The notes under the pieces are model-generated. The model ran no database searches. It was not told the DNA's origin and saw only the letters and a program-made list of their open reading frames with translations. Position numbers and translations under genes: made by a program. This document shows positions 9,754 through 44,700 of a DNA stretch of 64,000 nt, piece after piece (the first letter of the stretch is position 1; every line of letters starts with the position of its first letter). The stretch is from a virus. Location: positions 32,001-96,000 of IMG/VR virus record IMGVR_UViG_3300044972_000601. One strand, given 5' to 3'.

Positions 9754-9754
9754 A

Positions 9755-24391: not shown

Positions 24392-24856
24392 TTAAAAGTT
24401 TTTGATGTCAATTGCATCAATTGCTTCGCGTGTTGTACACGCCAATACTTCAGCTTCTAACGCATTATTTGCATCTCGTATTGCTTGCCTAGCTTGTAAC
24501 ACTTCAAGTACTCGAGAAGTTGTATTTTCAAGCTGATCTTGTTCTTTGGCTCTTTCTAGTTGCCAGTCCAGGGCCATTATCTTTTCAGCAGCCTTAGCCT
24601 TGATCTGCGGAATTCTGGATTCTTTATATTTTTGCAAAGAATCCGCTTCTTTAGCTGAGTTGTATTCTGTAACTTGTTGATCCAATGTTTTGCCTGGCAT
24701 TGTGTGTACAACTACGCCGTCAATCAACTTCAAGGTGGCCAACAATTCTGTTGCTGGATTGTATGGATATGCATAGCTGGTGGTGTGTGCGTCTGACTCA
24801 GCATCGAAAAAATTAGTTGCTTCGTTAGTCAGCGGGTCGAATGTGAGATATTTCAT
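24392..24856 (-). CDS. Tail-fibre assembly chaperone-like protein
   Basis: C-terminal DWQLERAKE...RQAIRD..N..EAEVLA pattern resembles Tfa-type chaperones; follows fibre-tip genes. Confidence 0.55.
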   Translation of the reverse strand: MKYLTFDPLTNEATNFFDAESDAHTTSYAYPYNPATELLATLKLIDGVVVHTMPGKTLDQQVTEYNSAKEADSLQKYKESRIPQIKAKAAEKIMALDWQLERAKEQDQLENTTSRVLEVLQARQAIRDANNALEAEVLACTTREAIDAIDIKNF

Positions 24857-24868
24857 AATTGTCCTGTT

Positions 24869-26266: not shown

Positions 26267-26289
26267 TTTATCGATTCCTTGGATTCATA

Positions 26290-27696: not shown

Positions 27697-27705
27697 TTAT
27701 TTCCC

Positions 27706-28899
27706 TTATACCAATTTCCAACCGTAAGTTACGCCTGAATACACCAGTGCAACGCTTACGTTTTTTATGTTTAAAATTAAATCTTCTGTTAACCCCATAA
27801 TCAAACTGGCGTTTCTTGCAACAGTTAAATTGTTACGGTCAAATGTTCCAGCCAAATCAGCAATGTATATGGTTGCATTAGTTGCAGGTGTTGCTGGCAA
27901 TGTCAAGGTAAATGCAGATGTGGCAGTATTGGCAAAATATTTTGCACCTGCCACTGCGGTTGTTGCGGTTGTGATAGTAGACCAAGCGCCGCCGCCTGAA
28001 GCATCCACATAACCTTTTGTTGCAGCTTGTAAATCAGTAGTTGGGTTGCCAGCTAGATACACTGCGGCGCCAAAATAACTGACACCGTTGACTCCTATAC
28101 CGCCAGCCACTGTAACTGCTCCAGTTGTTGCACTGCTGGATGCGGTAACATCAGTGGATATTAAAGTTGTAAATTTTCCAGAACTTGCTGTGGCACTGCC
28201 AATTGCAGGAGGACTTGCCAAGTAACTGCTAAAACCAGTGCCACTTATACTGGTGGCAGATAATGAGGTAAATGCTCCTGATAATGCCGTTGTTGCACCA
28301 ATGGTGACATTGTTAATTGTGCCGGCAGTTGCTGGATTAATGGTAACTGTGCCAGTACCAAGCGGGCTCAGTGTCACTGTTTGATTGGTAGATACCGCTG
28401 ATAGCTGGCCTAAAAACGTAGTAAGCTGTCCAGCTGTTCCGAGTGTTAGTGTACTGGTAGGGCTTATAGTGGCCAATCCTGTTGGACTGATTGTTACATT
28501 ACCGGTTGGACTTAAAGTCACTGTGCTGGTTGTGGTCAGTGTAGTAAATCTACCAGCGGCTGCTGTTGTTACACCTATACTTACATTGTTTAATGTGCCA
28601 GTCGAAGTTGGACTTAAACTAAAAGAATTCAACGTTAAATTTAAATTTCCAGAAATGTTAACAGTTCCGTCAACAGTTAGTCCGTCCAATGTTCCTGCAA
28701 TATGTGTTACACTTGGTCCTAGTGTGGTAGGAGTCAGTAACTCATCGCCGTTGTAACCTAAATACGATCCAGTAGTAAGTTCAATTTTAGTACCAGTCAC
28801 AGTGATAGTATTTGTGACCAAGTTTCCTTGCACATCTACAACAAAATAAGGGCTAACGTAGCCGTGTGCTGATCTAAATAATTTAGAAACTGTAGTCAT
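27706..28899 (-). CDS. Tail fibre shaft protein with C-terminal adaptor domain
   Basis: LSP.GTG.VTINPAT.GTINNV.IG repeats; P.TDLQAATKGYVD; C-terminal YFANT...FTLTLPATP...IADLAGTF..NNLTVARN...LVYSG..YGWK. Confidence 0.7.
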   Translation of the reverse strand: MTTVSKLFRSAHGYVSPYFVVDVQGNLVTNTITVTGTKIELTTGSYLGYNGDELLTPTTLGPSVTHIAGTLDGLTVDGTVNISGNLNLTLNSFSLSPTSTGTLNNVSIGVTTAAAGRFTTLTTTSTVTLSPTGNVTISPTGLATISPTSTLTLGTAGQLTTFLGQLSAVSTNQTVTLSPLGTGTVTINPATAGTINNVTIGATTALSGAFTSLSATSISGTGFSSYLASPPAIGSATASSGKFTTLISTDVTASSSATTGAVTVAGGIGVNGVSYFGAAVYLAGNPTTDLQAATKGYVDASGGGAWSTITTATTAVAGAKYFANTATSAFTLTLPATPATNATIYIADLAGTFDRNNLTVARNASLIMGLTEDLILNIKNVSVALVYSGVTYGWKLV

Positions 28900-28909
28900 A
28901 TGTTTTCCG

Positions 28910-29584
28910 TTAAACCATTGCCATGCCGTATGCGGCTGCTAGGGCGGCTGCATAACCAAATGTAACGGCACTGTTTACACCTGCAGGCTGGCTGGTCATT
29001 GTTAATGTTGTGAATCTTCCAGTGGATGCTGTGGTGGCACCTATTGAAACATTATTAATATCACCAGTGGTATTTGGGTTTGCAACAAATGTTCCAGTCC
29101 CCGACGGAGTTATAGATATAATTGCATTTGAGCCGCTAAATGCAACATTGCCTGATGCAGTTAATGCAGTAAATGCACCGGCAGCTGGGGTAATATTGCC
29201 AACAGTGACATTATTCATAGAACCTGTTGTTGCTGGTGCTATTGTTATAGTTCCAGTGCCAGTTGGGCTTAATGTTATTACAGCATTTGAAGAATTAAGA
29301 TTTACAGTGCTAGTTGCAGTTAATGTTGTAAAAGTTCCTGCTTTAGGTGTTATAGCACCAATAATAACGTTATTCATTGCACCAGTTGTCACTGGATTAA
29401 CTGCTAAACTGTTGGTCACTGTTAAATCTGCAATTGAGCTACCGGTATTAATAAACAACGTGTTTGTGGTTGCATTTGTTGTGACAGCTATTCCGTTTGT
29501 TCCCACCACATTTAATACGCTGTTGGATGCGTGAAGATTAATGGCATCTTGCCCACTGACCGCAAGTTGTGTATAACTGTTCAT
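28910..29584 (-). CDS. Fibre protein sharing the same ~40-aa repeat
   Basis: Three NP.TTG.(M/I)NNV.IG..T...G.FT.LT repeats. Confidence 0.65.
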   Translation of the reverse strand: MNSYTQLAVSGQDAINLHASNSVLNVVGTNGIAVTTNATTNTLFINTGSSIADLTVTNSLAVNPVTTGAMNNVIIGAITPKAGTFTTLTATSTVNLNSSNAVITLSPTGTGTITIAPATTGSMNNVTVGNITPAAGAFTALTASGNVAFSGSNAIISITPSGTGTFVANPNTTGDINNVSIGATTASTGRFTTLTMTSQPAGVNSAVTFGYAAALAAAYGMAMV

Positions 29585-30771
29585 ACTGCTGCTCCTAAAA
29601 GAATAGCCTGTAACTGGCCAAGTGTGATAAGTTGATTGCCCTGAGTGCTTTGATTTAAAACTGTTATAGTAGTAAATCTACCAGCAGCCGGTATTGATGA
29701 TCCAACATTTACATTATCTATAGAACCTATATTACTAGGCCCTATATTAACTGTACCAGTACCGCCAGGGCTTATGTTAACTGTTTGATTATTGCTGTTA
29801 AAGATTCCGTTATTATTAACAGTGAACGTTGTAAAAGAACCACTATTAGAACTTACTAATCCTATAGTGGTATTATTTATAGTTCCCACGGTTGCTGGAT
29901 TGACTGTAACAGTGCCGCTGCCTGTTGGTGCCAACGAAATTAGCTGATTATTACTAACAGCAGACACCGCTCCTATTGCTGTCAGTTCTGTAAATGTTCC
30001 AGACTCTGGCGTAAGTGTTCCTATGTTCACATTATTAAAATTGGATACTTCTACAGTATTTGCTGTGAATGTAGTAGTTACATTTAAATTAGCAATATTT
30101 TCTAAACTAAACGTTATTGCACTAGGAGCAGTTGTAATTGTAATAGCACCATCTGTATTTAAAATGTTTAGTTTTGTTAGAATAAAATCTGGAGCAAGCT
30201 CGGTTTGGCCAGGAACTTGTATTAACCCAATATTACCAATTGCCACGGATCCAGTTTCGTTAATTATCATGAATCCGTCTGACAGGTTAGTGTTATTCCA
30301 ATTTCTGAACACACCTAATTCGCCGCCGGCATTTGAACTTTCACCGTCAATTGTTGGAATATAAGTAGGAGTTAGACGTTCAAAATATGTAACTTTAAAA
30401 GTTAACTTGACATTTACTAATGGAGTAACACCATCATCTTGATAAAATGGGCTGGCTGTTACAATTACCCTAGATGCATCTGCCACGGCACTGAAACTTA
30501 CTAAATCTCTACCATTATTATTCCTGCCACTTACTGTAATTGATGCTTGTTCAGGGCGAGCTGATATTTTTACATTAATATGCTCAACATCGTTTTTTCC
30601 GTACTCTGCAACAATTTCATAAACCGCACTGGAAAACTCACCAACAAACCACGTGTCTATCACAGTGGCCGTTGGAATAGGTATTTCAGATCCTTTTACA
30701 GACCAGTTTACGCCCCTTTTAAGTCTTAGGGTATTTCTTAAGCCTCTAACAAAGTAGTCTGCAAAGTTCAT
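29581..30771 (-). CDS. Fibre/virion protein sharing the same repeat
   Basis: C-terminal N.V.IG..TP..G.FT repeats; AATAAATA at 30792-99 upstream. Confidence 0.65.
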   Translation of the reverse strand: MNFADYFVRGLRNTLRLKRGVNWSVKGSEIPIPTATVIDTWFVGEFSSAVYEIVAEYGKNDVEHINVKISARPEQASITVSGRNNNGRDLVSFSAVADASRVIVTASPFYQDDGVTPLVNVKLTFKVTYFERLTPTYIPTIDGESSNAGGELGVFRNWNNTNLSDGFMIINETGSVAIGNIGLIQVPGQTELAPDFILTKLNILNTDGAITITTAPSAITFSLENIANLNVTTTFTANTVEVSNFNNVNIGTLTPESGTFTELTAIGAVSAVSNNQLISLAPTGSGTVTVNPATVGTINNTTIGLVSSNSGSFTTFTVNNNGIFNSNNQTVNISPGGTGTVNIGPSNIGSIDNVNVGSSIPAAGRFTTITVLNQSTQGNQLITLGQLQAILLGAAV

Positions 30772-30863: not shown

Positions 30864-31445
30864 ATGGGTCGTTATTCGGAATATTTCAAAGAAGTATGGA
30901 AGTTGCAGGCAAACCGCAAGGTTATGGGTGTGGGATTGTTCAATGTATTGGTTGACAACACACGGGTTTTTACACCCGGTGATGCAATTATGCCTGTAGA
31001 AGGTGTTGACAAAGCAATACAGATTCTGTCTCAAAAAGGATACGATTTTATCATTATTACGGGCCAACCTTCTAGCAGAACCCGTGCTTTAGAAATGCAC
31101 GATTTTGAAAATATTATCACTGGAGCAAGACAGTTTATCGAACAACTAGGCGGCCGAGTTCGCAATGTTTATTATGCACCGGGTACTGATAAAAATGACC
31201 CGTATGTTAGACCAAATACGGGTATGTGGGAGCGTGCGGCATCAGAAAATAATCTCAAATGGGATGGGGTGCATTTTGTAGGAAGCGAAACAAACGATGT
31301 TAAAGCATCTACTAAAATGAAAGCTATTCCTGTTTTAATTAAAACTGCTAATAGCGAGTCTAAACTCAAAGCGTTTGAACTAACGCATCAAACTAAAGTA
31401 AAAGAATTTAGCAGTTTATTAGATTTTGCTAATTCGCTGGAATAA
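30864..31445 (+). CDS. GmhB/HisB-like HAD-fold protein with a degenerate active site
   Basis: PVEGVDKAIQIL..KGY..IIITGQ, YYAP....DPYVRPNTGMWERA and FVGS...DVKA...KAIPVLIKT match the GmhB layout, but DxDG is replaced by GLFNV. Confidence 0.7.
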   Translation: MGRYSEYFKEVWKLQANRKVMGVGLFNVLVDNTRVFTPGDAIMPVEGVDKAIQILSQKGYDFIIITGQPSSRTRALEMHDFENIITGARQFIEQLGGRVRNVYYAPGTDKNDPYVRPNTGMWERAASENNLKWDGVHFVGSETNDVKASTKMKAIPVLIKTANSESKLKAFELTHQTKVKEFSSLLDFANSLE

Positions 31446-31471
31446 AAAAAGGAGCTAAATGCTCCTTTTTT
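31444..31471. terminator. Bidirectional intrinsic terminator
   Basis: AAAAAAAGGAGC-TAAAT-GCTCCTTTTTT between convergent genes. Confidence 0.88.
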
Positions 31472-31472
31472 A

Positions 31473-32090
31473 TTAAAATACTCTAGAATTTAATATATCA
31501 TCTGCATTTCCAGTGCATCCTTTCCAGAATGTATTAAATGCAATAGTCCTACGTGCTGTATCTAGTTGTGCAGGAAAAACTTGATGTCCAACATTTGACA
31601 ATATCAGTAGCAAATGATTTTTAAGATTATCTTCGGAGCCAGCTAAATCTCTAATTGTTGCTTGTATTTGCTTTTTATACAAATAACAAGGAATCTCTTG
31701 GGAACTAGTATTCATAGCAAAATTTAAATTATCAGGATTATCGTCTAAGTATAATACACCACTGACAACGCTAAATGGGTGTGCGTGGTCTTGATGGCTA
31801 CCGCCTTGCGTGGATCTATTAGCCCACGAGTTAGTAATTTCTATTTTTTCAAATAGATTAACATTGTATGCATTTCTTAAATAGTCCTCGCATTCCTTCT
31901 CTAATGCTTCCTTAATTTCTTTAAATTCAGGTCTATTAAATAAATCTCGATTGATACTTATTTCATTATGTAGATTTTTTGTAAATTCAAGTTTGTCAAA
32001 CTCTGATCTGATGAGATCAAAATCAATCTCATCAGACAAGTCTTTAATTAAAATTAAATTAGTTGACAAATTAAAAAAACTATTCATCAA
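31473..32090 (-). CDS. Putative 2OG-Fe(II) oxygenase (TIGR02466-like)
   Basis: SWAN....GGSHQDHAHPFSVVSGVLYL...H.V.P....RRTIAFN. Confidence 0.75.
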   Translation of the reverse strand: MMNSFFNLSTNLILIKDLSDEIDFDLIRSEFDKLEFTKNLHNEISINRDLFNRPEFKEIKEALEKECEDYLRNAYNVNLFEKIEITNSWANRSTQGGSHQDHAHPFSVVSGVLYLDDNPDNLNFAMNTSSQEIPCYLYKKQIQATIRDLAGSEDNLKNHLLLILSNVGHQVFPAQLDTARRTIAFNTFWKGCTGNADDILNSRVF

Positions 32091-33799
32091 ACTTCCTGCA
32101 ATTCATTCTTCGTTAACAATTTTCCAATTTCAGGCAACCATAAGTATTTCATGCTAGAGCGATTCAAAGTGTCTAATGCTTCGCTTATTTTTTCAACTAG
32201 CGGATCTCCTGCCAAGTTAAAACTAGTATTGAACAAAATAGGTACACCTTTAATTTTATTAAACTCGCTGATCAAGTTATAATAGTGAGGATTCTGCTCT
32301 TGTGTAACTGTTTGCACACGACAAGTACCGTCTACGTGTGTAATTGCTGGAATCTTATCACGTTTGTCTGCTAGTACGTCAACAGCATACATCATACTAG
32401 GACTTTCTTTCCTACCTGCAAGGTCAAACCAGTCTAATGCGTGTTCTGCTAAACATGATCCAGCAAATGGACGGAACCATTCTCTGTTTTTAACTAGATT
32501 AACAATGTCTTTACCGTCAGGCACAGTTGGGTCAAATAAAATACTTCTGTTACCCAGTGCTCGTGGGCCTGCTTCGCTACGTCCTTGGAACAATGTAACA
32601 ATATTACCGTCTGCAATAAGTTTAGCTACATCACTAGCAGTAGTACCTTCAACGGTAAATCCGTCAAAGTTTGCGGCTGCATATTCTCCGGATCTATCTG
32701 GACCAATGTACAACGATGTCAATGGTGTTGGCTCGTTGTTACCTGTAATTTTCCTATAAACATACTGGCATGCACCCATAACTGTGCCGCCATCGTGACT
32801 AACTGGTTCGTGATAAAATTCAACATCTGGGAATTCTTTCAAAAATTCGTAGTTTGCAACGCAGTTTAAAACATAACCGCCGGCCATTACAATTTTCTTT
32901 TTACCTGTAATTTCGATAGTCTGTTTGATCAACGCAATTACCCGCTCTTCTGTAGATTTTTGTACAGCATAAGCTAGATCTTTTTGAAGATCGTTAATTG
33001 CAGATTCATCCTTATGCCACGATGCATCACTTTCGTGCTCTTTTAACTCGGGATTTAAATCGCATCGAATTACATTGCCTGCTGGAAACTTAGGTTTAAT
33101 CAAGTTACGATTGTTAAATTTACCTTCATGAATTTTAATACTATCATTTGGTTTACCGTAAGGTGCAATGCCCATAGTTTTGCCAGCTTCAATAGCATGG
33201 AATCCTAAGTATTGTGTTACAGCTTCGTAACTCTTTGTAATACCATGGCCGTCAGACATTTCAATATATGTATCGTTGTCGGTTAGGCTGAAACTATCTA
33301 CTAAATTAGTGCCGTAATGCACTAGATGTTTGGTAATTTCTGCTGGGTATGACAAACTCCAGATAGATTCTACTTCCCACGATTCATGTTTTAAACCTTC
33401 CATATCAGGCAAGTCTAAACCGCTGCCGGCGCCGTCGATAACAATAGCTGCGGCATCGTCGAATCCTGAATTATAAAATGCACAAACTGCATGAGTCATG
33501 TGATGATCATCACCTAACTTAATAGTTTCCATCTTATGCCCAGGTTGTTTCTTTCTTACATAACAGGTATATGCATCTTCGGCTGTCCAAGGAACTTGTC
33601 CAAACGCATTTCTAGTCCCGCATAAAATTAAGAAATCAATATGATCAGTATATTTGAATGCTTCTTCCATGCCTAAGAAAGGATTGCCATCGTACTTCAT
33701 TCTGCTTAATCGATCTTCTTCGATATAGTATACTAGTTTGTTATCTTCGTACAGCGCACAAGCACCGTTGTGCCCTACATTAATAGCCATTAACCACAT
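32087..33799 (-). CDS. Carbamoyltransferase, NodU/CmcH/TobZ family
   Basis: HHMTHA..AFYNSGF..A.AIVIDGAG, EAGKTMG.APYG, AGGY.LNCVAN, GRSEAGPRALGNRSIL, KNREWFRPFA, HVDGTCRVQTV, NTSFNLAG.P. Confidence 0.95.
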   Translation of the reverse strand: MWLMAINVGHNGACALYEDNKLVYYIEEDRLSRMKYDGNPFLGMEEAFKYTDHIDFLILCGTRNAFGQVPWTAEDAYTCYVRKKQPGHKMETIKLGDDHHMTHAVCAFYNSGFDDAAAIVIDGAGSGLDLPDMEGLKHESWEVESIWSLSYPAEITKHLVHYGTNLVDSFSLTDNDTYIEMSDGHGITKSYEAVTQYLGFHAIEAGKTMGIAPYGKPNDSIKIHEGKFNNRNLIKPKFPAGNVIRCDLNPELKEHESDASWHKDESAINDLQKDLAYAVQKSTEERVIALIKQTIEITGKKKIVMAGGYVLNCVANYEFLKEFPDVEFYHEPVSHDGGTVMGACQYVYRKITGNNEPTPLTSLYIGPDRSGEYAAANFDGFTVEGTTASDVAKLIADGNIVTLFQGRSEAGPRALGNRSILFDPTVPDGKDIVNLVKNREWFRPFAGSCLAEHALDWFDLAGRKESPSMMYAVDVLADKRDKIPAITHVDGTCRVQTVTQEQNPHYYNLISEFNKIKGVPILFNTSFNLAGDPLVEKISEALDTLNRSSMKYLWLPEIGKLLTKNELQEV

Positions 33800-33811
33800 G
33801 CTTAGGTATCC

Positions 33812-34735
33812 TTATTTTGTTGTTTTCTTAATATGTTCTTTGATGCCTGCAATGATAGTTTTTAATTCTTCTTTGCTAAAATCCATCAATGTATCGTTTA
33901 ATCTATCCGCTTCTTCGCTTGCAAATCCAGCAATCCTGATAGGACTATAAACTTTCTTTGCACCTTTCTTTTCAACAATATTGAAATGCTCTGGGAATGA
34001 AACATTAATGCCAAAAGTGCTTCCTAAGATTACAGTGCCAGGTTTATCAAAAGTATATGCAAGATGCTGTCCTACACTATCGCAACCAATAAAATAGTCG
34101 GAGCTTTCAATGATTGCAGCCCATACCCGCAATGGAACTTGTTCTTGAGGTTGGAACAAAGGCAAGTTTACTACGTCTAGTTTATGTTCACCCATGTAAA
34201 TCATGTTATAGTCTTTAGATAGTTCTGCTACAAGTTCCATAAACGTTGCTTGTTCAATACTACGACTGCTTCCGTCATATACAATACCTGGACCCATTTG
34301 ACTGCTACGGCCAAACGGCTGAATCACAATTGTTTTTTCTTTCTGATGCTGTTGTTTTACTTGAGTCATTAATCCAACAGCTGCCATTTCTTCGTGTTTG
34401 TTTAAGTTTAGGGTGGGCTTTTGATTTTTATCAGTACGCTCGCCTAAAATATCCCACCAAAAGCTCTGCTGTAAGCTACTTCTCTGGTTGTAGTATTCAT
34501 GATCTCTATAAGGTTCTGCACTAACACAGATATTGTCCTTAATAAGATCTTCAAATAACCCCTTGTGGTTAACGTCCCAGGCTTTGGCCTGTAATGTCGG
34601 ATGTCCCATGAACATCTCTAGTCCGCCTTCGCAAACAATTCCTGCAAGTTCACCTCTGCTATCTAATTCTTCTAGAGCGGGTATACTTGCTATAACACGG
34701 CCTGCGCCACCATTAATAAAGACAACTTTTTTCAT
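33812..34735 (-). CDS. GT-B glycosyltransferase, GT9 (ADP-heptose heptosyltransferase)-like
   Basis: N-terminal GGAGRVIASIPAL, IVIQPFG, and the GT9 signature AAII..SDYFIGCDSVGQHLAY.FDKP.TVILGST. Confidence 0.8.
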   Translation of the reverse strand: MKKVVFINGGAGRVIASIPALEELDSRGELAGIVCEGGLEMFMGHPTLQAKAWDVNHKGLFEDLIKDNICVSAEPYRDHEYYNQRSSLQQSFWWDILGERTDKNQKPTLNLNKHEEMAAVGLMTQVKQQHQKEKTIVIQPFGRSSQMGPGIVYDGSSRSIEQATFMELVAELSKDYNMIYMGEHKLDVVNLPLFQPQEQVPLRVWAAIIESSDYFIGCDSVGQHLAYTFDKPGTVILGSTFGINVSFPEHFNIVEKKGAKKVYSPIRIAGFASEEADRLNDTLMDFSKEELKTIIAGIKEHIKKTTK

Positions 34736-34754
34736 ATGATTCCTATAGTCTGGA

Positions 34755-34762
34755 TATTTATA
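34755..34762 (-). promoter_or_regulatory. T4-type late promoter for the GT-carbamoyltransferase-oxygenase operon
   Basis: Perfect TATAAATA 19 nt upstream of the GT ATG, with an AGGA SD in between. Confidence 0.75.
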
Positions 34763-34775
34763 CTAGCATATAATA

Positions 34776-35543
34776 CTATACAAGGTTTTCTGATATATAG
34801 TCAAGCAAAATTTTGCCGTATTCTTCGTGAACTATTGCATCAAAGTGGCCGGCCATTCGGCGACGGTCAATATGATTAACACTTCCCCAATTGTAAACTG
34901 CTTCTGAATTCAATTTGTAAAAATTTACACAGCTTGTATCGATAATTTTATAGTCAACTTTATCAACTGTGTTTACGAATATATGCTTGTAACCTTTTGA
35001 TTTTAAAAATTCATGTAACGCAATTATTCTAGCTTCCTGTTGGGGACGTTGCAGTTCGTCTGTCCACAAATAATCTACACAAAATGGTACAACATCTTCA
35101 ACTACACTATGAAGTTTACCCTTGGTCTGGACAACGGTTCCACAAGTTGGGTTGACAAACATTGTACCAAAATCTTTAAATTCTATAGGTGCATGTTCGC
35201 TTAAAAAAATATTGTTAAGATTAAGATTAAAATTTGGTATTTTGCTAAACCAAGCAGTACCATCAACTTCTGTTCTATGCAAACTAGACCAACCAATTAT
35301 AACAAATACATCTTCAGGGTTAGTGCCAGTTTTTTCTAACTCAAGTAGATCAAAGATAGTATTTCTAAAAATAAAATCGTTGGTTGCACCGTTATAAGAA
35401 TTGTTTATATAAGTTTCGCAATTTAATCCGGATGCAATAACTTTTGGAAATGCATATTCTTTATTATGTTCTTCTCGGTTGTAATCTTCTATAATCTCCA
35501 TTCCAAAGATAAATGAATCGCCGTTTGCATATAGTGTTTTCAT
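34776..35543 (-). CDS. SGNH/GDSL-like hydrolase or acyltransferase
   Basis: LYANGDSF block I, N.SYNGATND.I.R, IIGWS...R.E, C-terminal GHF....HEEY. Confidence 0.7.
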   Translation of the reverse strand: MKTLYANGDSFIFGMEIIEDYNREEHNKEYAFPKVIASGLNCETYINNSYNGATNDFIFRNTIFDLLELEKTGTNPEDVFVIIGWSSLHRTEVDGTAWFSKIPNFNLNLNNIFLSEHAPIEFKDFGTMFVNPTCGTVVQTKGKLHSVVEDVVPFCVDYLWTDELQRPQQEARIIALHEFLKSKGYKHIFVNTVDKVDYKIIDTSCVNFYKLNSEAVYNWGSVNHIDRRRMAGHFDAIVHEEYGKILLDYISENLV

Positions 35544-35546
35544 GAA

Positions 35547-35664
35547 TTATGTACTGTACGGATACCCAATGTTTGTTTGTTGTTTAGCAACCCATTCAAA
35601 TTGTTGCTCCATGTGGCCAGACATAGTTTGTAAGCGAACAACCAAAAGTAAAAAGTCTTGCCAT
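35547..35664 (-). pseudogene. Internally deleted remnant of a second SGNH-like gene
   Basis: ATG at 35664 gives MARLFTFGCSLTNYVWP (GCS block-I start) and then a stop; another frame gives EQQFEWVAKQQTNIGYPYST*, ending 3 nt before the SGNH ATG. Confidence 0.55.
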
Positions 35665-35741
35665 TATCTGTTATTGAAAGTATATCCTAGACTATATATA
35701 TGCAAACAAAAACTGTTTCGTGCCTAAACTGGAGATTTATC

Positions 35742-36380
35742 ATGTTGAAAAAAATTGTTAATGCATTTAGCGTACCTATATTAGAAACTCAATTTGATAA
35801 TGTTGATGCGTTGAACGTTTCTCTTTATGAAAATATAACTGCTATGTTTTCTGATATGGACGACAAGCGACTTTTGAGTTATGAATGGAACAACTTTGTA
35901 CTAACAGATAATCCAAAACCAGCAACAGGATATAGTTCGTTTAATCATGCAAGTCTAGTAGATAATCCTAATTTTAAAGAGTTCTTTGATATAATTACTC
36001 CGTTAATCACTGATTTTTTCAAACAACTAAATTTTCCCGAAGCTTCCCCGTTTATCAATAAGTGGAGTTTTGAAAATTCATGGGCAAGTGTATATCCGGA
36101 AGGTGCATGGGTTCCTAGTCATAATCACGGTAGCAGTCACTGGAGTGGTGTCTACTATGTAAAAGCAGATCCTGCATGTGGTGATTTAATATTCTCGGAT
36201 CCTAAAGAATATTCGTTAAGCAACGAACCTGCAAACACTAAATGGCGTGGCAATAATCGCCATATAATGGGAGCAATTCCGGGCAAGATGTATGTTTTTC
36301 CTGGGTATGTCAAACATGAATCACATCCTAATATGTCCGGCGAAGATCGAGTTATTATCAGTTTCAATATTAAAGCATGA
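35742..36380 (+). CDS. Putative 2OG-Fe(II) oxygenase (TIGR02466-like)
   Basis: Start MLKKIV with GGAG; SWASVYPEGAWVPSHNH...WSGVYYV...FPGYVKHES.PN.SGEDRVIISFNI. Confidence 0.85.
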   Translation: MLKKIVNAFSVPILETQFDNVDALNVSLYENITAMFSDMDDKRLLSYEWNNFVLTDNPKPATGYSSFNHASLVDNPNFKEFFDIITPLITDFFKQLNFPEASPFINKWSFENSWASVYPEGAWVPSHNHGSSHWSGVYYVKADPACGDLIFSDPKEYSLSNEPANTKWRGNNRHIMGAIPGKMYVFPGYVKHESHPNMSGEDRVIISFNIKA

Positions 36381-36955
36381 TATACGATCCTAATTTTCCA
36401 GAAATACTACAAACAACATTTGCAATAACTGCTGAGACTAGGCAACGGATGATCGATACTGTCTTGTCACAAAAAGATATTGGAAATTATTACGGTGGCT
36501 ACACGTTTCGAGTTGTAGATACAGAACAAGGCGATTTTAAAAAACTGTATAACTATACTATCGAATGCACTGAAAAAATATTTGGAAAGTTAATGCTTGC
36601 TCCTAAGAACAGATCTTGGTGTTGGGCAAATGTTTATAACAAAGATAGTTTTAGAACAAACATGCACGAACATAAAGGAACGTGTTCTATCAACGCAATT
36701 TATTATCTAAAAATACCCGATGACATTGCTAATAATGAAGGCGGATTGTCACTGGTAAAAGATGAAAAACTGTACGGTACATTTCAGCCGGACGAAGGCG
36801 ATCTTGTCATAATGCCAAGCTATGTTCCGCACGAGCCGCAGTATCACTCGTCGACTGATTATAGAATAGCAATTAATATGGAGATTGCAACATCTAATCA
36901 CAGTTCAAAATACTACACTAAGGAAAACATTTATGCCAACGCCACCATTCTATAA
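36377..36955 (+). CDS. Putative 2OG-Fe(II) oxygenase (TIGR02466-like)
   Basis: CWANV...HEH....INAIYYL...P.EGDLVIMPSYVPHEP......RIAIN. Confidence 0.75.
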   Translation: MIYDPNFPEILQTTFAITAETRQRMIDTVLSQKDIGNYYGGYTFRVVDTEQGDFKKLYNYTIECTEKIFGKLMLAPKNRSWCWANVYNKDSFRTNMHEHKGTCSINAIYYLKIPDDIANNEGGLSLVKDEKLYGTFQPDEGDLVIMPSYVPHEPQYHSSTDYRIAINMEIATSNHSSKYYTKENIYANATIL

Positions 36956-37475
36956 CCCATCTGTGTACGAACAAATTCGAGTATTATCTAAGCACTTGTT
37001 AGAAGAAGATGTATGTGATAAACTGATTAAAAACTACGATACTGATTTAGAATTAAAAAATCAAGATGGCGACAATAATGTATCTTATAGATCTGTTAAA
37101 ATAAAAGATATTGATATTAACGAAATCCCGGGATTACGGGATCAAGTATTATCTGCTAATTTTGAATATTATAGACTCAACGTCAATGCACTTAAATCTG
37201 ATTGTTTTTTTGCAAAATATGAAACGGGTATGCATTACCAAGAACTGCATATGGATTGTGTGCCTGGTGATCATCAGCGTAAAATAACTTTTACATTAAT
37301 GCTGAACGACGATTTTGAAGGCGGCCAATTTGAATTGTTAGGCAATACCTATATAGAAAAGGAAAGGGGAAAACTTTTGGTTCTCCCCTCTTTTCTTCCC
37401 CATCGAATCACACAAGTTACATCAGGTGTAAGATATGCAATCTTTGGGTGGTTTTACGGCCCTAACTTTATTTAA
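36933..37475 (+). CDS. 2OG-Fe(II) oxygenase, prolyl-hydroxylase/PKHD-like
   Basis: Likely start MPTPP (AGGA). KYETG..Y..LHMD...RKITFTLMLNDDFEGG.F...PSFLPHRIT.VTSGVRY...GW..GP gives HxD...H...R. Confidence 0.88.
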   Translation: MPTPPFYNPSVYEQIRVLSKHLLEEDVCDKLIKNYDTDLELKNQDGDNNVSYRSVKIKDIDINEIPGLRDQVLSANFEYYRLNVNALKSDCFFAKYETGMHYQELHMDCVPGDHQRKITFTLMLNDDFEGGQFELLGNTYIEKERGKLLVLPSFLPHRITQVTSGVRYAIFGWFYGPNFI

Positions 37476-37996
37476 ACTGTAGGAATTTCTACAGGTACTA
37501 AAGATAGTGGTTTTGCCTGAATCTCCACTGGATCTTTATGCTCGCTAGTTACAGTTCCGCCTGGACCAGTTACTGTTAGAACTACACTAATTACGACTTT
37601 TGTTGCTTGTTTTACAAATTCAATTTCGACAAACTCTTCTTGGCCGTATTCTTCTCCGTTGATAACCCAACTGTAAGTATCCCAAATACCGTTAGGAGTT
37701 GCATGGAATCCCAGTTTGACAGTGTTGCCGTTGTCTTTAACAACGTAGTTAGACCAGTCAGCGAACGGCGGCCCTGGCGGCGGTGTTGGGTTTTCAGCAA
37801 TGTGCTCTTCTAACCACTGTCCGCCACTGATCCATTCGTCGTTCTTAAATTTCCAACCTACATTAACATGGTCAGGAACTTGTTCCCAATACCCAGGCAG
37901 ATCGTTTTTTGCGATCTGATCTGGATGCCACAGTCCCGAAGGATCTTCGTCATGCGTTTGCATGATTTCATTGTTTACTATTTTTGCCCAAATCAT
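37472..37996 (-). CDS. Fibre-associated protein (Tfa-like N-terminus, PKD/Ig-like C-terminus)
   Basis: WAKIVNN.I...VPDHV.VGW N-terminus; YSWVING...V.LTVTGPGGT C-terminus; follows the Cys-rich pair. Confidence 0.5.
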   Translation of the reverse strand: MIWAKIVNNEIMQTHDEDPSGLWHPDQIAKNDLPGYWEQVPDHVNVGWKFKNDEWISGGQWLEEHIAENPTPPPGPPFADWSNYVVKDNGNTVKLGFHATPNGIWDTYSWVINGEEYGQEEFVEIEFVKQATKVVISVVLTVTGPGGTVTSEHKDPVEIQAKPLSLVPVEIPTV

Positions 37997-38013
37997 TTAT
38001 TTCTCCTGAATTA

Positions 38014-39654
38014 TTAAGCATCTTTCCAATAGATAATAGCCATACCAGTACCAGCATTGCTAATTCTCCAATCTAACTCACATGCAGGGTATGCTAAAGC
38101 AGTAACTCCGTCGCCGTTGCAAGTGTTAAACGTACTATTACCATAACAAACGCATAAGATATAGTTTCTAAATACGCCGCCACCACCGCCTTTACCTGCT
38201 TTTGACATCATGGTACAGATTCCTACTCCGCCTGATCCGCCCAATGTTCCTGCACAACTAATAATGTTAGGAAACAACGATTGTGCAAATCTATCTGAGC
38301 AACATACCTTACCTGTCAATCCTAGGCAACATACGAATGGCCAATTTACATATAGTGAATTATTATTGTAATGGAACTGTGTAGCACAGCAAACAAATAC
38401 TACGCCGCCTGTTCCTGCGCCTTCACCTGCATTTGCTGGACGAGTTGTTTGATCTTCTCGTGTTGCCCACAGAATTGACCCGCACCAGTAGTCATTATCC
38501 CTGTGATGGCTTCTACCAGCAGAGCCGGATCCGCACATACTGTGAATGTCGTGCCAGCTGTGAACTATTGGATCTTTACTCGGTGGTGTGTACATAGTAC
38601 ACGACGCATAATTACCGCAATAGAAGCCGATACAATCCCAATCAATACATCCGCCAACACCTGAGTGGTTATCATAGCCACCCCAACCGCCGTGGCCTTC
38701 GATCCAGAATCCGCAGGTACAATTGGTATTGTACATATTTTGGCATTCACAACAAGTGCAAATTTGCCATTTTGTTCCGCCGCCGCCGCCCGCGCTGTTT
38801 GGAAAACAGGCATTACGCTGATGCGGCCCGCCTTGCCCGCCTTGGTTTGCTGAGCCGCACATACAACTGCAAGGGCCGCTACGTACATCTTGTCTAAAGG
38901 TATAACCTACGCCGCCGCCGCCGCCGGCAGTTGCTCCGTGGCCGCCTGATGCGCCGTATATATCAACTGAATTTTGTGCGCCTTGTCCGTTGCCGCCACA
39001 TAAATGTCCCCACCATCCAGCACTTGCACCGCCGGGATAACGTGCATTACAACATTGATCAGAACCGTGGCCTGGAGTTTGGCCAATGCCAACGCCGGCA
39101 ACAACAATACAATACCCGCAGCAAGTTGTTAAAGAAAAACAAATACATGTTCCGCAATAATGGCTGAGAGAACCACCGCAATAGTTACAACCTTTGCCGC
39201 CTGTGCCGCCAATACTATTCCAATCTCCACCAGATGCTGCGCCTGGTGTACAACCGGCTGCTCCGCCGCCGGTTACTGTTCTTGCTACAGCACTTGAGTT
39301 AGTGTAACTTATTGTTGTATCTTGTTCTTGGCGACCAACAACAACCGAAACAACACAGCCTGGGGACACAGTGTCGTAGCGTTCAGCATATCCGCCGCCG
39401 CCGCCTGCATACCCGCAACAAGTTTCTGTACATTTTGGTTTGCCGCCGCCGCCTACTGAAACTACTCGTAAACAAGTAATTCCGGAAGGAACAGTAAATG
39501 AATAGTTACCAGGAGTGTCTAAAATAACTCTATTTTGCCAACAATCGTTGGAACTATAAGAATATTTTTGAGTATTTGACTGATAACAAGTAGTAGATAC
39601 TGCAAGCTGACAACTGTTAGCTTGAGAAGTACCAGTGCTTACATAACGTCCCAT
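38014..39654 (-). CDS. Cys/Gly-rich fibre-tip protein, paralog B
   Basis: PG.YSFTVPSGIT.LRV..VGGGG ... GGGGGYAE ... AG.GMAIIYW glycine-rich tip architecture; about 48 Cys in 546 aa (hand count). Confidence 0.65.
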   Translation of the reverse strand: MGRYVSTGTSQANSCQLAVSTTCYQSNTQKYSYSSNDCWQNRVILDTPGNYSFTVPSGITCLRVVSVGGGGKPKCTETCCGYAGGGGGYAERYDTVSPGCVVSVVVGRQEQDTTISYTNSSAVARTVTGGGAAGCTPGAASGGDWNSIGGTGGKGCNYCGGSLSHYCGTCICFSLTTCCGYCIVVAGVGIGQTPGHGSDQCCNARYPGGASAGWWGHLCGGNGQGAQNSVDIYGASGGHGATAGGGGGVGYTFRQDVRSGPCSCMCGSANQGGQGGPHQRNACFPNSAGGGGGTKWQICTCCECQNMYNTNCTCGFWIEGHGGWGGYDNHSGVGGCIDWDCIGFYCGNYASCTMYTPPSKDPIVHSWHDIHSMCGSGSAGRSHHRDNDYWCGSILWATREDQTTRPANAGEGAGTGGVVFVCCATQFHYNNNSLYVNWPFVCCLGLTGKVCCSDRFAQSLFPNIISCAGTLGGSGGVGICTMMSKAGKGGGGGVFRNYILCVCYGNSTFNTCNGDGVTALAYPACELDWRISNAGTGMAIIYWKDA

Positions 39655-39656
39655 TA

Positions 39657-41354
39657 TTATGCTTCCCTATAATATATAATTGCCATTCCTGTACCTGCAT
39701 TACTGACCATTTGATCTAGTAAGCAAGGAGGAAATGCTAGTGGTGTAGCTGCTGTACCGTTACAGCAATCAAATGCACCGCCCCAACATACACAAAGGAA
39801 TTGACATTTTGCTTGGCCGCCGCCACCGCCTTTGCCGGCTTTGGATGAATATCCGCACCACGACACACCGCCAGAACCGCCTAATGTTCCTGCGCAAGTA
39901 ATAAAGAATGGAAATAATGCATCCTGCATTAACCATGCCTGATCACACCAGCCGCAAACGCCTAACTGGCAAATTTTACACCAGTTAACGTTTGGACTTC
40001 CGCTTGTTCCGCTGTTTGCTCCAGCTGTTGTACCAATCATGTTACCCATCATTAAAGGATTACAGCAAGTAGTAGCAATGCCGCCAGTTCCTGCACCTTC
40101 ACCTGAGTTTCGTGGACGAACTCCGATGAAAAATCCTCTGCAACCGTTAGTGTTTGCTCTACTTGCAACTGTGCCTGGTGCACCAGATCCGGCCATATCG
40201 TGTATATCCCACCATTCTTGTCTTTGAGGGCCTTCTTCGCTACAAGCGTAGCAATGCGTAGTATAGCAGTAAGCAGAACCAAAAGGATACGAACAATATG
40301 CTCCATAACCCCACTCAACGTGCCATGCTTGTGATTCTTTAGGGTTTGCGCCACCACGGCCTCCGTCACCACCTTTCCATACACCAGACATGCAGTCTTG
40401 ACTCGCCCAACTTCTGCATTGTGTTTGTCCTAAACTTGTGCCACCGCCGCCCTGGGCGCTCGGTGGGCAATTTGTACACCAAGTCAAATAAGGAGGAATA
40501 TACTGACACCCCTGCATACAAATACAGTTACAGCAGTTATAATGCCAAGTACAGCCTTGTGCGATCCAGTCGCCAATACCTGCTCCACCACCAACAACTG
40601 CTCCGTGACTTGTGCCGCCGTAGCCGCAAGTACACCAAGATGCGCCGCCACAAGTTGCTAACCAAGAACCTGCGCTTGCACCGCCAACAATATTTGCACT
40701 ACAGCAACCGTTACCGTCATGTCCACCTTCAGTATATTGGTAAACTACACAGTATCCACAACAAGTTGTAACACTAAAACATTTACAACTTCCGCAATAG
40801 TGACTGTAAGAACTTCCGCAATTGTTACAAGAATATCCTGACAAGCCGCCGCAACTATTCCAATCTCCACCTGTAGCAACGCCAGAAACACAGCCAGATG
40901 CTCCGCCTGCTGTGTGAGAAGCAACACCATTACAACTTACTGTTGTATCTTGCTCTTGACGGCCTACTTGGATACAGAAATATGTGGAGCCGCCTGTTAC
41001 TGCGTGATTTTTCTCGCTGTATGCTCCGCCTGAGCCAGCAGCACTTGCGCACGTTGAACCGCTTGCATCAGGCACACTGCCGCATTTTGGTTTGCCGCCG
41101 CCGCCAACAAGAACTGTTCTGGCACAAACTATGCCAGCTGGCACTGTCCAGCAATATGCTCCGGGTTTATCTAAAACTAACTTGTACTGCCAACATTGCT
41201 TGCCGTCGTAACATGCTTTTCCGCCGTAACGTAAGGTTGTGCCATATGCTTGACTTTGTGCAATGCTACCACCCAAACTTGCGGCTGTCATTTTAAATGC
41301 AGCTTGCTTTTCAGAAGTAATACAAGTAGTTAATACTGGTACAAAACGTCCCAT
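39657..41354 (-). CDS. Cys/Gly-rich fibre-tip protein, paralog A
   Basis: Co-linear with 38014..39654 (GGGGKPKC, VGRQEQDTT, GGDWNS, SHYCG.C.CFS.TTCCGYC, CAGTLGGSGGV, SNAGTGMAIIY); about 53 Cys in 565 aa. Confidence 0.65.
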   Translation of the reverse strand: MGRFVPVLTTCITSEKQAAFKMTAASLGGSIAQSQAYGTTLRYGGKACYDGKQCWQYKLVLDKPGAYCWTVPAGIVCARTVLVGGGGKPKCGSVPDASGSTCASAAGSGGAYSEKNHAVTGGSTYFCIQVGRQEQDTTVSCNGVASHTAGGASGCVSGVATGGDWNSCGGLSGYSCNNCGSSYSHYCGSCKCFSVTTCCGYCVVYQYTEGGHDGNGCCSANIVGGASAGSWLATCGGASWCTCGYGGTSHGAVVGGGAGIGDWIAQGCTWHYNCCNCICMQGCQYIPPYLTWCTNCPPSAQGGGGTSLGQTQCRSWASQDCMSGVWKGGDGGRGGANPKESQAWHVEWGYGAYCSYPFGSAYCYTTHCYACSEEGPQRQEWWDIHDMAGSGAPGTVASRANTNGCRGFFIGVRPRNSGEGAGTGGIATTCCNPLMMGNMIGTTAGANSGTSGSPNVNWCKICQLGVCGWCDQAWLMQDALFPFFITCAGTLGGSGGVSWCGYSSKAGKGGGGGQAKCQFLCVCWGGAFDCCNGTAATPLAFPPCLLDQMVSNAGTGMAIIYYREA

Positions 41355-41369
41355 ATTATCTATTTCCTA

Positions 41370-41690
41370 TTAAGTTGTGCTTGTTTCAATACCGTATGCT
41401 ACAGCATTAACACTGGTTGTGCTTGAATAAACAACTAATACTTTTCCAGCATCTAGTACTAAACCTGTACGCTCTAGTACAGCGTTTGCTGGAATAGTTG
41501 TACCAAATTCTAACCACTCTGCACCACCCGGTGTTGCACTACTAGCAAGAGCTAGTCTAACTGTAACACCTGACGCATTCCTATTACAAATTGTTATGTT
41601 TACAATAGCAAATGTACCTGTAGGGCAAGTATACAAAGTGGTATTCGTTGCTGCTGACAGATCTGCTGTGCCTAATCTTCCTGTTGCCAT
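41370..41690 (-). CDS. Small beta-sandwich virion/fibre adaptor protein
   Basis: T.LYT.P....AIV.I.ICN...LE.G..IPAN.VLERTGLVL.AG pattern shared with 54063..54392 and 58246..58578. Confidence 0.6.
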   Translation of the reverse strand: MATGRLGTADLSAATNTTLYTCPTGTFAIVNITICNRNASGVTVRLALASSATPGGAEWLEFGTTIPANAVLERTGLVLDAGKVLVVYSSTTSVNAVAYGIETSTT

Positions 41691-41705: not shown

Positions 41706-44700
41706 TTATCTTAGTAAGAAGTAGTTTAATGCTAAGGGACTACCGTCTATACCCTGTGTAAAGTTAGCTTTATTCTTTATATTTATCTGAGTTCCTGCCG
41801 TGTTACGAATCTGAGATCCTGTAATTTCGATAGTTCCTGCTACCAGCGTATTTACGTTAACTGTGCTGTTGCCGCCGCCAATTTGGCTAGCAACATATGC
41901 CCTGATAGCTTTCTGCGTTGGCACAATCGTATCACTGTTTGCACTGAATGTTGCATCAGTACTGAACTGACTAATACTTGTGTTTGAACTGCCCAATGTA
42001 ACACTACCTAATTGTAATGTTTGTAGGCCGCTCAAGTTAAACGCATTGGCATTCAATGTGGCAATACCTGTTGATTGCTGAACAGTGAACAAGTCGCCCA
42101 CGTTAAAGTTACCGTCTTGGTCAGTACTTGTGTAGAACACACGCCCGCCGCCCGCTTCGACAGTTTCATTTGCTATGTCGGCTGCTTGAAGTGGTGTGTT
42201 TGGATAATTGGTTGTGGCAATTGGGCCGGTACCAATACTCAAGAAGTCGTGTCCAGTTAGTCGAGTTTGACTGTATAATATACGCATTGTGATTGCTACA
42301 CCATGTACTGGTGCAAGTGCAATGGTCATAACAGGACTAATTTGTAATGTAGCACTGTAGTTACCCGGTGTTCCTGTTTGACTACTAACTGTTACCAACT
42401 TGTAGTACGAACTATTGCCTGCAAATTGTATGTTACTACCCAATGTAGGAATAGCAGTCATACCACTTACATTCATGTACTGATTATTTTGGAAAATGTC
42501 AGCATAGCCGCTACCACTGATTGTGGTAGTGGAACTGGTATAGCCAGTGCCGCGATTGGTAAATGTTGGGTTGCCCAAAACGCCTATACCAGTTCTCACT
42601 GTGTACGTGGCCGTTGACGTGGCATTTGGGTCGCCAAGTGTGATTGTTGGAGGAGTAGTGTATCCAGAACCTGGTTCGTAGATTCTAAAACTACTGATCT
42701 GTCCGCTGGTAACAACTGCACGGGCTTCTGCTCGTGTAAAGTTAGGAATACTCAATGCACTTGTACTGCTACTTGCAATAACTGCCCATGTAGGAGCCGC
42801 ACTGGTAATAGTAGTGCTGCCTGTTGAAACAGCATGACTAGTGTCAACTGTCCAAGTACTGCTTGAACCAAACTGTGTTCCAGTCAAGTTAGCAGTGATT
42901 GTTGTGCCAGCAATTACACCAACGCCATTCAACACTGCACCAGTAATAATGCCGCTGCCAGTTGGAGTACTTGTAACAGTTAATGTTGTTCCAGTGATAC
43001 TACCAGTAAAGCTAGTGCTGGTATTACCAAATGTCAAAGCATTCCAAGATGCATTGCTCAGTGTGCGTGGAGTCCAGTTAATGCCATCCGGACTTGTTGC
43101 ACCTGCACCTGCACCTGTTACACTGGTCCAGTTGCCGCCTACATTACTTGAAATAGTAGTAATTGGTGTTAACGTTGCACTTGTACTAACTTGTATCTGA
43201 CTATTAGTCTGATTAATTGAGACAACGTAATATGTTGTGGCTGATGTTAAACCGCCAAATGCAGCACCTGCTGTGATTGCCTGTGTACCAGTAGCAGTTG
43301 TAACTGCCAAATTAGTTCCGCCAAAGCTAGCACTTACTGCTACAGTTGTTGCACTTGGAACTGCTGTGACAAAGTATGTTGTACTATTTGACAAGCCACC
43401 AAATGCTCCCGATACATCAGTTACAAAGCTCTCGCCCACTGCCATGCCAGTAGAAGAATCAACGGTAATCAAATTATTAGTACCGGTTATCAAACCTGGA
43501 GTTGTAACAGTTTGACTTGCGTTCAAAGAATAACTAGATCCAGAAATTGCAATACTACCAGTTGCACCAATGGCAGAACTCACTGTGTATGTGCCTGCAC
43601 CTCCAGAGCCTGAGCCAAGAGCAGTAATATATCCAGTCAAATTATCTAATTTGATAGCATTGTTTTGATAAGAAACATATCCCAATGTGTATGTTAGGCC
43701 AGTTGGAGTACCAATAGTAGTTACCACACCAGTTGTTACGTTAGGATTAACATTGCTGGTTGTGCTCAGTGTGAATGTTGTACGACCATTTGTAGCAATC
43801 ACATAATAAGTAGTTGGATTGGCATAGCTGGTAATAGAGCCAGTGCCGCCCAGTGTGCCACTAATTGTTATAGTCATACCAACCGCAAGAGTTGTTGCAT
43901 CACAATTAAACTGTCCGCCAGTTCCAATAATATTAACATTGGCCAATACGGGCTGTGTTAATGTATAATGTTGACCTGCAAATAGTGTGCCTCCGCCCAC
44001 GGTTGCTGTGGGTGCTGGACTTATGAAATAAGTTCCTGATCCACCAGTGCCTGTGCCGTTAGCAGTAACAAATGATCCTGCACTTACTACGGTTCCGCCA
44101 GCACCAGTTGCACTTGTGGCACTGTCAAATGTACAGATACTTGCTGAACAAGCTGTTACTTTGAATGTGCCGTTAAAGTTGCTGTTGGCATTGCCTGTGA
44201 TTGTGATTGCTTGTCCTGTGGCAAATGGAGCACTTGCTTGTACACTGCTGAATGTAACTGTAGCACTTAATCCGTTACCGTTAACATTATTGATTGCCAA
44301 ACTTTGTGCAACGAAACCGTTTGTCCAGCTGATAACTGTACCCGGAACAACAGTGCCAGAACCCACACCCGATACGTTTAGTGTAATAGGAGTTGCTGTG
44401 ATTGTGGTACTTGTAACTGTCTGACTCAAGTTAACTAACCATGTGCTTGGATTACTGGTTGCAGTACCGCTCAAACCTGCAGAAACATAAGTTCCTCCAG
44501 TAACGCCTGTGCCGCTTATCACATATCCCACAACAATGCCTGTTCCTGATGGAGCACTGGTCACAGACATAATGCCGCCTAGGCCTACATCCGTTGCACT
44601 TACTGGTGCAATGCTGGCAGTAAATGTCACTGCTGTACCGGCTGTGATGCCGCCAAAGAATGAACTTGGTGCTGAAGCAGCAATAGTATAACTGGCTCCT

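Follow-up and report, generated by a model that had tools for sequence, protein, structure and literature searches.

The tail-fibre region of a large myovirus contains two adjacent genes, for a GT9-fold glycosyltransferase (GT) and a NodU/CmcH-type O-carbamoyltransferase, and across relatives the GT is associated with fibre-tip genes far beyond chance. The region lies at positions 30864-41690 of a 64,000-nucleotide stretch of IMG/VR virus record IMGVR_UViG_3300044972_000601 (positions 32,001 to 96,000 of that record); this whole stretch is called the window, and all coordinates refer to it unless a locus is named. The fibre and tip genes are on the minus strand, and an enzyme block of 6.6 kb lies directly past them. 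As the best-supported reading we propose, tentatively and aware that it may well be wrong, that the GT and the carbamoyltransferase decorate glycine-rich tip adhesins of the phage itself with carbamoyl-heptose.

The association was measured from both sides. With a 12-sequence GT alignment, 85 GT-bearing loci were gathered, and their GTs were collapsed to 23 clusters at 65% identity, 19 of which have at least 5 kb of upstream flank. When a Cys-rich open reading frame (ORF) was defined as one with at least 4.5% Cys within 8 kb of the GT, such an ORF was found upstream in 14 of the 19 clusters and downstream in two further ones (16/19 in all). For comparison, a downstream Cys-rich ORF was present in only 2 of the 20 clusters with at least 5 kb of downstream flank. 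The clusters left over still adjoin glycine-rich adhesins or tail-tip proteins. Four loci considered as exceptions were set aside, L031 and L033 as threshold artefacts and L007 and L019 because their tip genes lie ~11 kb off, behind a larger enzyme island. Starting instead from tip genes of the window type, 21 IMG/VR loci had enough flank, and the GT and carbamoyltransferase were located 2.4-7.3 kb downstream in 16 of them; two more had the pair on the same contig, and none was shown to lack it. All 11 cultured-phage records matching a Cys-rich protein of P-SSM2 belong to GT-positive phages. The test of co-occurrence and synteny proposed in a first-pass annotation of this DNA was thus passed in both directions. 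The carbamoyltransferase was found in 82 of the 85 GT loci, and in most of the 85 it follows the GT on the same strand after a gap of 0-18 nt.

That annotation had also suggested the abundant cysteines of the tips as the acceptor, which is disfavoured by locus L043, where the enzymes are paired with a 2141-aa protein that has four Gly_rich_2 domains and 0.1% Cys. This Cys-poor partner indicates that the constant partner of the enzymes is the glycine-rich adhesin domain and not cysteine. In the tip proteins themselves, conservation reaches 90% or more at ~16 Cys positions, a pattern that points to structural roles. The two tip paralogues of the window (A and B) are 41% identical. The AlphaFold2 (AF2) model of paralogue B (546 aa; predicted local distance difference test [pLDDT] score, 83) matched in Foldseek the fibre of cyanophage Pam3 (7ypx; E 6e-4), the glycine-rich domain (GRD) of ALK/LTK and the Bxb1 tail tip. 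The window tip proteins fall below the threshold of Pfam Gly_rich_2 (PF21722), and homologues at 48-49% identity pass it, with 26-28 bits versus 24.3. These homologues and the Foldseek matches indicate that the tip proteins are receptor-binding tips of the polyglycine type. They share a fold class with the known glycine-rich (polyglycine-II) domains of the Pam3 fibre, the ALK/LTK GRD and PF21722, and differ from them in their 8.8-9.4% Cys and their obligatory enzyme neighbours. They are also homologous to the small Cys-rich proteins of the cyanophage type (hhalign 95.9%, E 5e-9). A tblastn search of cultured phages with the 546-aa tip protein gave no match.

Arrangements in which the GT has no carbamoyltransferase were also seen. 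In locus L021 (5655-10924), from a 372-kb complete phage with terminal repeats, the GT comes after an 872-aa protein resembling a gp38 adhesin. Two small P-loop genes at the same locus resemble a sulfotransferase and an adenosine 5'-phosphosulfate kinase by N-terminal motif only; the same idea may here take a sulfated form. In Vibrio phage vB_VspP_SBP1 (Schitoviridae; locus L004, 9001-12522), a shortened GT homologue of 244 aa lies between the tail-fibre gene and the gene for a 925-aa tail-tip protein with 4.4% Cys. About 30 records of N4-like Vibrio phages have such a shortened GT.

The features of the window region are as follows, from the fibre operon to the far end of the enzyme block.

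41706-49958, minus strand: proximal fibre protein of 2750 aa at the head of the late fibre operon, with five CBM_5_12 modules (E 2.7e-26).
41370-41690, minus strand: adaptor-like small fibre protein of 106 aa, matching the N-terminal parts of tail-fibre PHROGs 11338 and 693.
39657-41354, minus strand: Cys/Gly-rich tip protein, paralogue A, of 565 aa (9.4% Cys, 18.6% Gly).
38014-39654, minus strand: Cys/Gly-rich tip protein, paralogue B, of 546 aa (8.8% Cys, 19.2% Gly), with a glycine-rich adhesin domain.
37472-37996, minus strand: Cys-free protein of 174 aa, a putative fibre chaperone from its position only.
37363-37391, minus strand: terminator-like hairpin closing the fibre/tip operon (12-bp stem, then a T-rich tail).
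35700-36380, 36377-36955 and 36885-37475, plus strand: trio of 2-oxoglutarate/Fe(II) (2OG-Fe(II)) oxygenases (PF13759, E 3.8e-19 and 1.7e-8; PF13640, E 5e-13).
34776-35543, minus strand: DUF6071/SGNH-like protein (PF19547, 35.6 bits versus a cut-off of 27), with a GDS motif at residues 8-10.
34755-34762, minus strand: box resembling a T4-type late promoter, TATAAATA, exact, 19 nt ahead of the GT start.
33812-34735, minus strand: heptosyltransferase-like enzyme of 307 aa with a GT9 fold (AF2 model and Foldseek), in which Arg13 replaces the catalytic Asp.
32087-33799, minus strand: NodU/CmcH-type O-carbamoyltransferase (Pfam), starting 12 nt after the GT.
31473-32090, minus strand: fourth 2OG-Fe(II) oxygenase, of 205 aa, the third gene of the operon (PF13759, E 2.6e-11), with a 4-nt overlap with the carbamoyltransferase stop.
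30864-31445, plus strand: GmhB-like HAD-IIIA protein (NCBIfam) without the motif-I nucleophile, a probable pseudo-enzyme, convergent to the operon.

Gene by gene, the inventory of the first-pass annotation was confirmed at these positions, including its two Gly-rich tip proteins of about 9% Cys (~19% Gly as measured). Its four dioxygenases all score above the Pfam cut-offs, and a profile search of the 64-kb window yielded no others. The description of the whole block as one system was too broad. It holds for the order GT, carbamoyltransferase and 205-aa oxygenase, perhaps with the DUF6071 protein, and does not extend to the three oxygenases and the HAD gene, because these are on the opposite strand and a strong terminator separates the fibre operon from the block. 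These four plus-strand genes, three for oxygenases and one for the dead GmhB-like protein, have only a loose tie to the system.

In the scheme that we propose, a late operon would supply the proximal fibre, the 106-aa adaptor, the two Cys/Gly-rich tip adhesins and the small putative chaperone, and a second operon a few kb downstream, with its own T4-type late box, would supply the GT, the carbamoyltransferase and a 2OG oxygenase. The GT would use a nucleotide-activated heptose whose synthesis genes are presumed to lie elsewhere in the genome, as they do in a close relative, and the carbamoyltransferase would then O-carbamoylate the heptose with carbamoyl phosphate and ATP. With the phage's own glycine-rich tip adhesin as acceptor, the virion would bear carbamoyl-heptose on its receptor-binding tips, where it could affect host recognition. 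Further tailoring, of the protein or of the glycan, may come from the oxygenase and the SGNH-like protein.

The small genes that flank the tips recur with them. Homologues of the adaptor were found in 38 of the 85 GT loci (the window included), upstream of the GT wherever checked. A small Cys-free ORF occupies the slot of the putative chaperone in the 21 window-type loci with downstream sequence and in S-CAM1, P-SSM2 and S-SSM7. For the 174-aa protein of the window, no family match was obtained and a PDB sequence search gave nothing useful.

The GT was assigned by structure. An AF2 model built from a 60-sequence alignment (pLDDT 97) matched GT9 enzymes in Foldseek at every position down to rank 27 (4rap, 3tov, 1psw, 6dfe, 2gt1 and 2h1f), with E values from 1e-9 to 3e-7. 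The best match was TibC (4rap, E 1.2e-9), and Veillonella GT9 (3tov), RfaF (1psw) and WaaC were also among the top ones. At the sequence level, the GT matched nothing in Pfam at E <= 0.01. Its best NCBIfam model was heptosyltransferase III, at 17.4 bits versus a cut-off of 170, with no BAHT model matched, and its profile reached E 0.0075 at best against PDB sequences, over one motif. The donor motif D219-S-x-x-x-H224 is invariant in 60/60 family members and aligns to D261/H266 of WaaC and to the WaaF motif. The N-terminal motif is in register with WaaC (G12, then P19-A20-L21), but residue 13 is Arg. The designation "GT9-like" in the first-pass annotation is accordingly sound for the fold and the donor motif, and not for a family hidden Markov model match or the catalytic Asp. 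From the modelled GT9 fold and the invariant donor motif, the enzyme looks functional. The protein heptosyltransferases TibC and AAH, which have the same fold and use ADP-heptose on an adjacently encoded protein adhesin (TibA or AIDA-I), are a close parallel and a precedent for the heptosylation of proteins. The GT of the window differs from them in having no sequence-level membership of that group, in its Arg in place of the catalytic Asp, and in having only 3 Cys, with no room for a Cys-based iron site. Since the lipopolysaccharide (LPS) heptosyltransferases match nearly as well as TibC, the fold does not identify the acceptor.

The Arg13 variant might also define a new class of protein glycosyltransferase, one that places carbamoyl-heptose on an unusual nucleophile of the tips, either a Cys thiolate (S-linked) or a residue hydroxylated by the co-transcribed 2OG oxygenase. 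We regard this as a long shot. Were it true, a mobile enzyme-plus-substrate cassette would chemically retune or shield the receptor-binding tips.

The carbamoyltransferase was identified by both of its Pfam domains, Carbam_trans_C (E 3e-60; 202.9 bits, cut-off 27) and Carbam_trans_N (E 1.5e-20; 74.4 bits, cut-off 24), and matched phrog_1601 at E 9e-156. It is not NodU itself (143 bits versus a cut-off of 1000). The gene directly 3' of the carbamoyltransferase was an oxygenase in 29 of 82 loci. In the SGNH-like protein, DUF6071 was matched over the first 93 residues only, and SGNH blocks III (GxND) and V (DxxH) were not recognisable by eye. Its Atlas structure neighbours include GDSL/SGNH clusters, all viral, and a PDB sequence search with it gave nothing useful.

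Another reading is DNA hypermodification, in which heptose, later carbamoylated, would be added to a hydroxymethylated base. Phage GT-B enzymes that add heptose to 5-hydroxymethylcytosine (5hmC) have been reconstituted, and some of their clusters are near structural genes (bioRxiv 10.1101/2023.12.21.572611). However, those 5hmC heptosyl enzymes resemble T4 beta-GT and not GT9, and the window oxygenases belong to PF13759 and PF13640 rather than to the TET/JBP type. Among the loci that were looked at closely, none has a cytosine methyltransferase, a TET-type dioxygenase or a hydroxymethylase annotated beside the pair. Hypermodification would also leave the tight link to the tip adhesin genes unexplained, and we consider it very improbable indeed.

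Genes for the supply of activated heptose accompany the pair in many relatives. Heptose kinase, adenylyltransferase, short-chain dehydrogenase/reductase epimerase and cupin genes were found at most 10 kb from the GT in 28 of 85 loci, and in S-CAM1, P-SSM2 and S-SSM7 the pair is followed by genes for heptose kinase, adenylyltransferase, phosphoheptose isomerase, a cupin and ADP-heptose epimerase. G001, a relative of 280 kb with a GT 79% identical to that of the window, has a cupin-adenylyltransferase-kinase-epimerase operon ~85 kb away. An ADP-heptose donor, as first suggested, is thus predicted by the genomic context in the 28 loci and in G001, and finds no counterpart in the window's own record. 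The detached operon of G001 (locus L093, G001:46000-65000, at 6450-13333) adjoins genes for a class I/II aminotransferase, a PA14/GLEYA-domain protein, an HNH endonuclease and an FkbM-type methyltransferase, and the activated heptose may be further modified in that phage. The GmhB-like protein of the window had GmhB as its best NCBIfam model (E 5e-18; 65 bits versus a cut-off of 178) and passed the HAD-IIIA model (46.5 versus 44.6). Relatives that carry heptose genes keep both GmhB motifs (DRDG and GDKxxD). Despite the lost motifs of the window protein, its gene is intact at 57-60% identity in sister phages, and the protein is probably a conserved pseudo-enzyme.

This persistence bears on a further reading, that the product is a soluble carbamoyl-heptoside acting as a metabolite or cofactor, or that the Arg13 protein binds sugar nucleotides and helps to assemble the glycine-rich tips instead of transferring sugar. 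The loss of the canonical GT9 base would fit such roles, and the GmhB-like pseudo-enzyme, conserved at 57-60%, implies that scaffolds can persist without catalysis. The islands of relatives also hold more enzymes of the tailoring type (halogenase, cupin, oxygenases and methyltransferase). Against these roles stand the donor-site residues, invariant in 60/60 members, and a dedicated nucleotide-heptose pathway kept in many lineages; the strict pairing with a complete carbamoyltransferase favours a glycan product. Overall, we judge a soluble product or a non-catalytic role to be quite unlikely.

The timing of expression was considered from the promoter-like motifs. The TATAAATA box reported in the first-pass annotation was found exactly at 34755-34762, as it is at the sheath gene, and 3 of the 4 copies in the window are 17-24 nt ahead of starts. 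Across the family, NATAAATA occurs in the 50 nt ahead of the GT in 29 of 84 loci; the figure is 15% for other ORFs and 1% for carbamoyltransferase genes. Late expression of the GT operon is likely on these motifs. Matches resembling sigma-70 promoters in 30.7-38.1 kb were at chance level (31 versus 27 +/- 6). One such match (TTGACT-18-TATAGT, 10/12) at 34775-34804, just upstream of the TATAAATA box before the GT, could reflect dual early and late control, or chance.

The carrier is, judged from its genes and its occurrence, a freshwater jumbo myovirus. Its sheath is closest to that of the Pseudomonas jumbo phage PA5oct (42% identity), and no psbA came up in G000, G001 and G002, which comprise the window's record and its large relatives. 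A cyanophage carrier was rejected on both grounds, and a marine origin was rejected because the phage DNA occurs in lake-water and freshwater metagenomes. Many lake-water and freshwater metagenome runs contain DNA of this phage, 15 runs contain at least half of the sampled words of window 31473-41354, and the phage appears to represent a recurrent freshwater population. No near-identical DNA was found in cultured phages. The GT-carbamoyltransferase module is present, with homologous tip proteins, both in Kyanoviridae and in the PA5oct-like jumbo lineage, and hence occurs together with homologous substrate candidates in unrelated phage lineages.

The first-pass annotation knew of no description of such a cassette, which proved incorrect. 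Homologues in the cyanomyoviruses P-SSM2 (PSSM2_307-313), S-SSM7 (SSSM7_120-133) and S-CAM1 (S170810_109-115) are annotated, as T4-GC 302/303 with the heptose clusters 304-308 adjoining in the records, and 'LPS gene clusters' have been discussed (PMC3037559). There, as in the window, a homologous GT (38-41% identity) is immediately followed by a homologous carbamoyltransferase (43-51% identity), and within the fibre region the pair is directly preceded by genes for two to three Cys/Gly-rich proteins and for a small protein without Cys. The cyanomyovirus cassettes belong to Kyanoviridae and have adjoining genes for nucleoside diphosphate-heptose, whereas the window locus belongs to a jumbo myovirus and has none beside it; the window tip proteins are twice as long, and its GmhB-like gene is degenerate. 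In the literature, the cyanomyovirus cassette has been treated as 'stuffer DNA' or LPS genes with no function given, and the function of the 'LPS gene clusters' of the larger cyanophages, including heptose-pathway T4-GCs 304, 305, 307 and 308, was unassigned in 2010 (PMC3037559). Our literature search found no paper tying the cyanophage homologues to fibre modification. What is new here is that the carrier is a freshwater phage and no cyanophage, that the heptose operon is relocated and the GmhB-like gene has degenerated, that the constant partner is the glycine-rich domain rather than cysteine, and that the GT has an acidic acceptor domain.

The published view of such genes is that they act on the host envelope: they have been called 'LPS gene clusters' (PMC3037559), glycosyltransferases of fibre regions have been interpreted as host O-chain modifiers (PMC7029224), and modification of the host cell surface has been proposed (PMC12801897). 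On this account, carbamoyl-heptose would be added to the LPS or a surface glycan of the infected cell and would block superinfection or keep progeny from sticking to debris. There is precedent in Pseudomonas, where GT9 enzymes (WaaC/WaaF) and carbamoyltransferases of the WapO type (PA5005) cooperate on the LPS inner core, the second core heptose carrying a 7-O-carbamoyl group (7-O-carbamoyl-HepII) that is added by the putative carbamoyltransferase WapO (PMC8005017). The same chemistry is a precedent for the carbamoyl-heptose that we propose on the tips. Fibre-gene linkage is compatible with this account, in which the enzymes would travel with receptor-binding genes because the two specificities must match. 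The phage system differs from that of Pseudomonas in that its two genes are joined in one operon beside adhesin genes, and in its GT. WaaC and WaaF act on Kdo2-lipid A at the membrane (Kdo, 3-deoxy-D-manno-oct-2-ulosonic acid), and their positively charged acceptor domains (net +8 and +5, respectively) fit an anionic lipid A-core acceptor there. The modelled acceptor domain of the phage GT is acidic (net -4 in the window, family median -3), unlike those of WaaC and WaaF, which argues weakly against such an acceptor, and the phage GT lacks the catalytic Asp that serves for Kdo or heptose acceptors. The LPS of marine picocyanobacteria is reportedly without heptose and Kdo, which also counts against a role in the envelope of such hosts. 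The occurrence of the pair with homologous tips in unrelated lineages is explained more simply if the substrate moves with the enzyme, and in the N4-like Vibrio phages the GT homologue, without a carbamoyltransferase, is found between fibre and tail-tip genes. With a late-type promoter, moreover, new LPS would hardly have time to appear on the surface. We consider remodelling of the host envelope unlikely, though deserving of serious attention.

Several points weigh against modification of the tip adhesins by the pair. The GT9 catalytic Asp (Asp13 in WaaC) is Arg in 56 of 60 family members and Lys in 2, a replacement that makes the chemistry uncertain and a non-catalytic role possible. The window's own record (108 kb, ~30% complete) is without a heptose-pathway gene; searches with PF13580 (GmhA) and PF01467 were blank, PF13580 being insensitive to short phage forms, since it missed loci where blastp finds a phage 'phosphoheptose isomerase'. 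In the GmhB-like protein, DRDG has become LFNV and GDKxxD has become GSETND, so that both the nucleophile and the motif-IV Asp are lost. With 4 copies against ~5 expected by chance, the TATAAATA octamer shows no enrichment in the window, and expression timing that rests on so short a motif counts as a weakness. Linkage to receptor-binding genes is equally expected of an enzyme that modifies the receptor. Fibres with glycine-rich domains, such as the Pam3 fibre, are not known to depend on such enzymes. The phages with published virion proteomes, namely, S-SM1, S-PM2 and Syn9 (PMC3037559), are not among the GT matches.

Two other parts of the window contain fibre-related genes. At 41706-53677 there are two giant paralogous fibre proteins of 2750 and 1224 aa, the shorter being a tail fibre at 50003-53677 (phrog_9851). 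The two have blocks in common at the N-terminus, in the middle and at the C-terminus, and the longer one has large insertions and the five CBM_5_12 modules. Across the enzyme block, at 24392-30771, a second module resembling fibre-tip genes encodes three related proteins (396, 224 and 397 aa), a pair of paralogues of 468 and 465 aa (49% identical; 1.7-1.9% Cys), for which a family search gave no match, and a small protein of 154 aa.

Modification of virion proteins by phage-encoded GTs has a precedent in mycobacteriophages (Freeman et al. 2023, cited in PMC12801897 and PMC12619734), whose GTs decorate the phage's own virion proteins. As these citing papers present that work, the modified sites are the C-termini of capsid and tail-tube proteins, and heptose, carbamoylation and fibre tips do not figure in it. 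Receptor-binding tips decide which hosts a phage infects. If the glycine-rich tip adhesins are indeed the substrate of the GT and carbamoyltransferase, virion glycosylation would extend from the capsids and tail tubes of mycobacteriophages to the structures with which abundant aquatic phages recognise their hosts, a function would be available for the long-standing 'LPS genes' of the large cyanophages, and the GT would stand as a GT9 variant of new chemistry.

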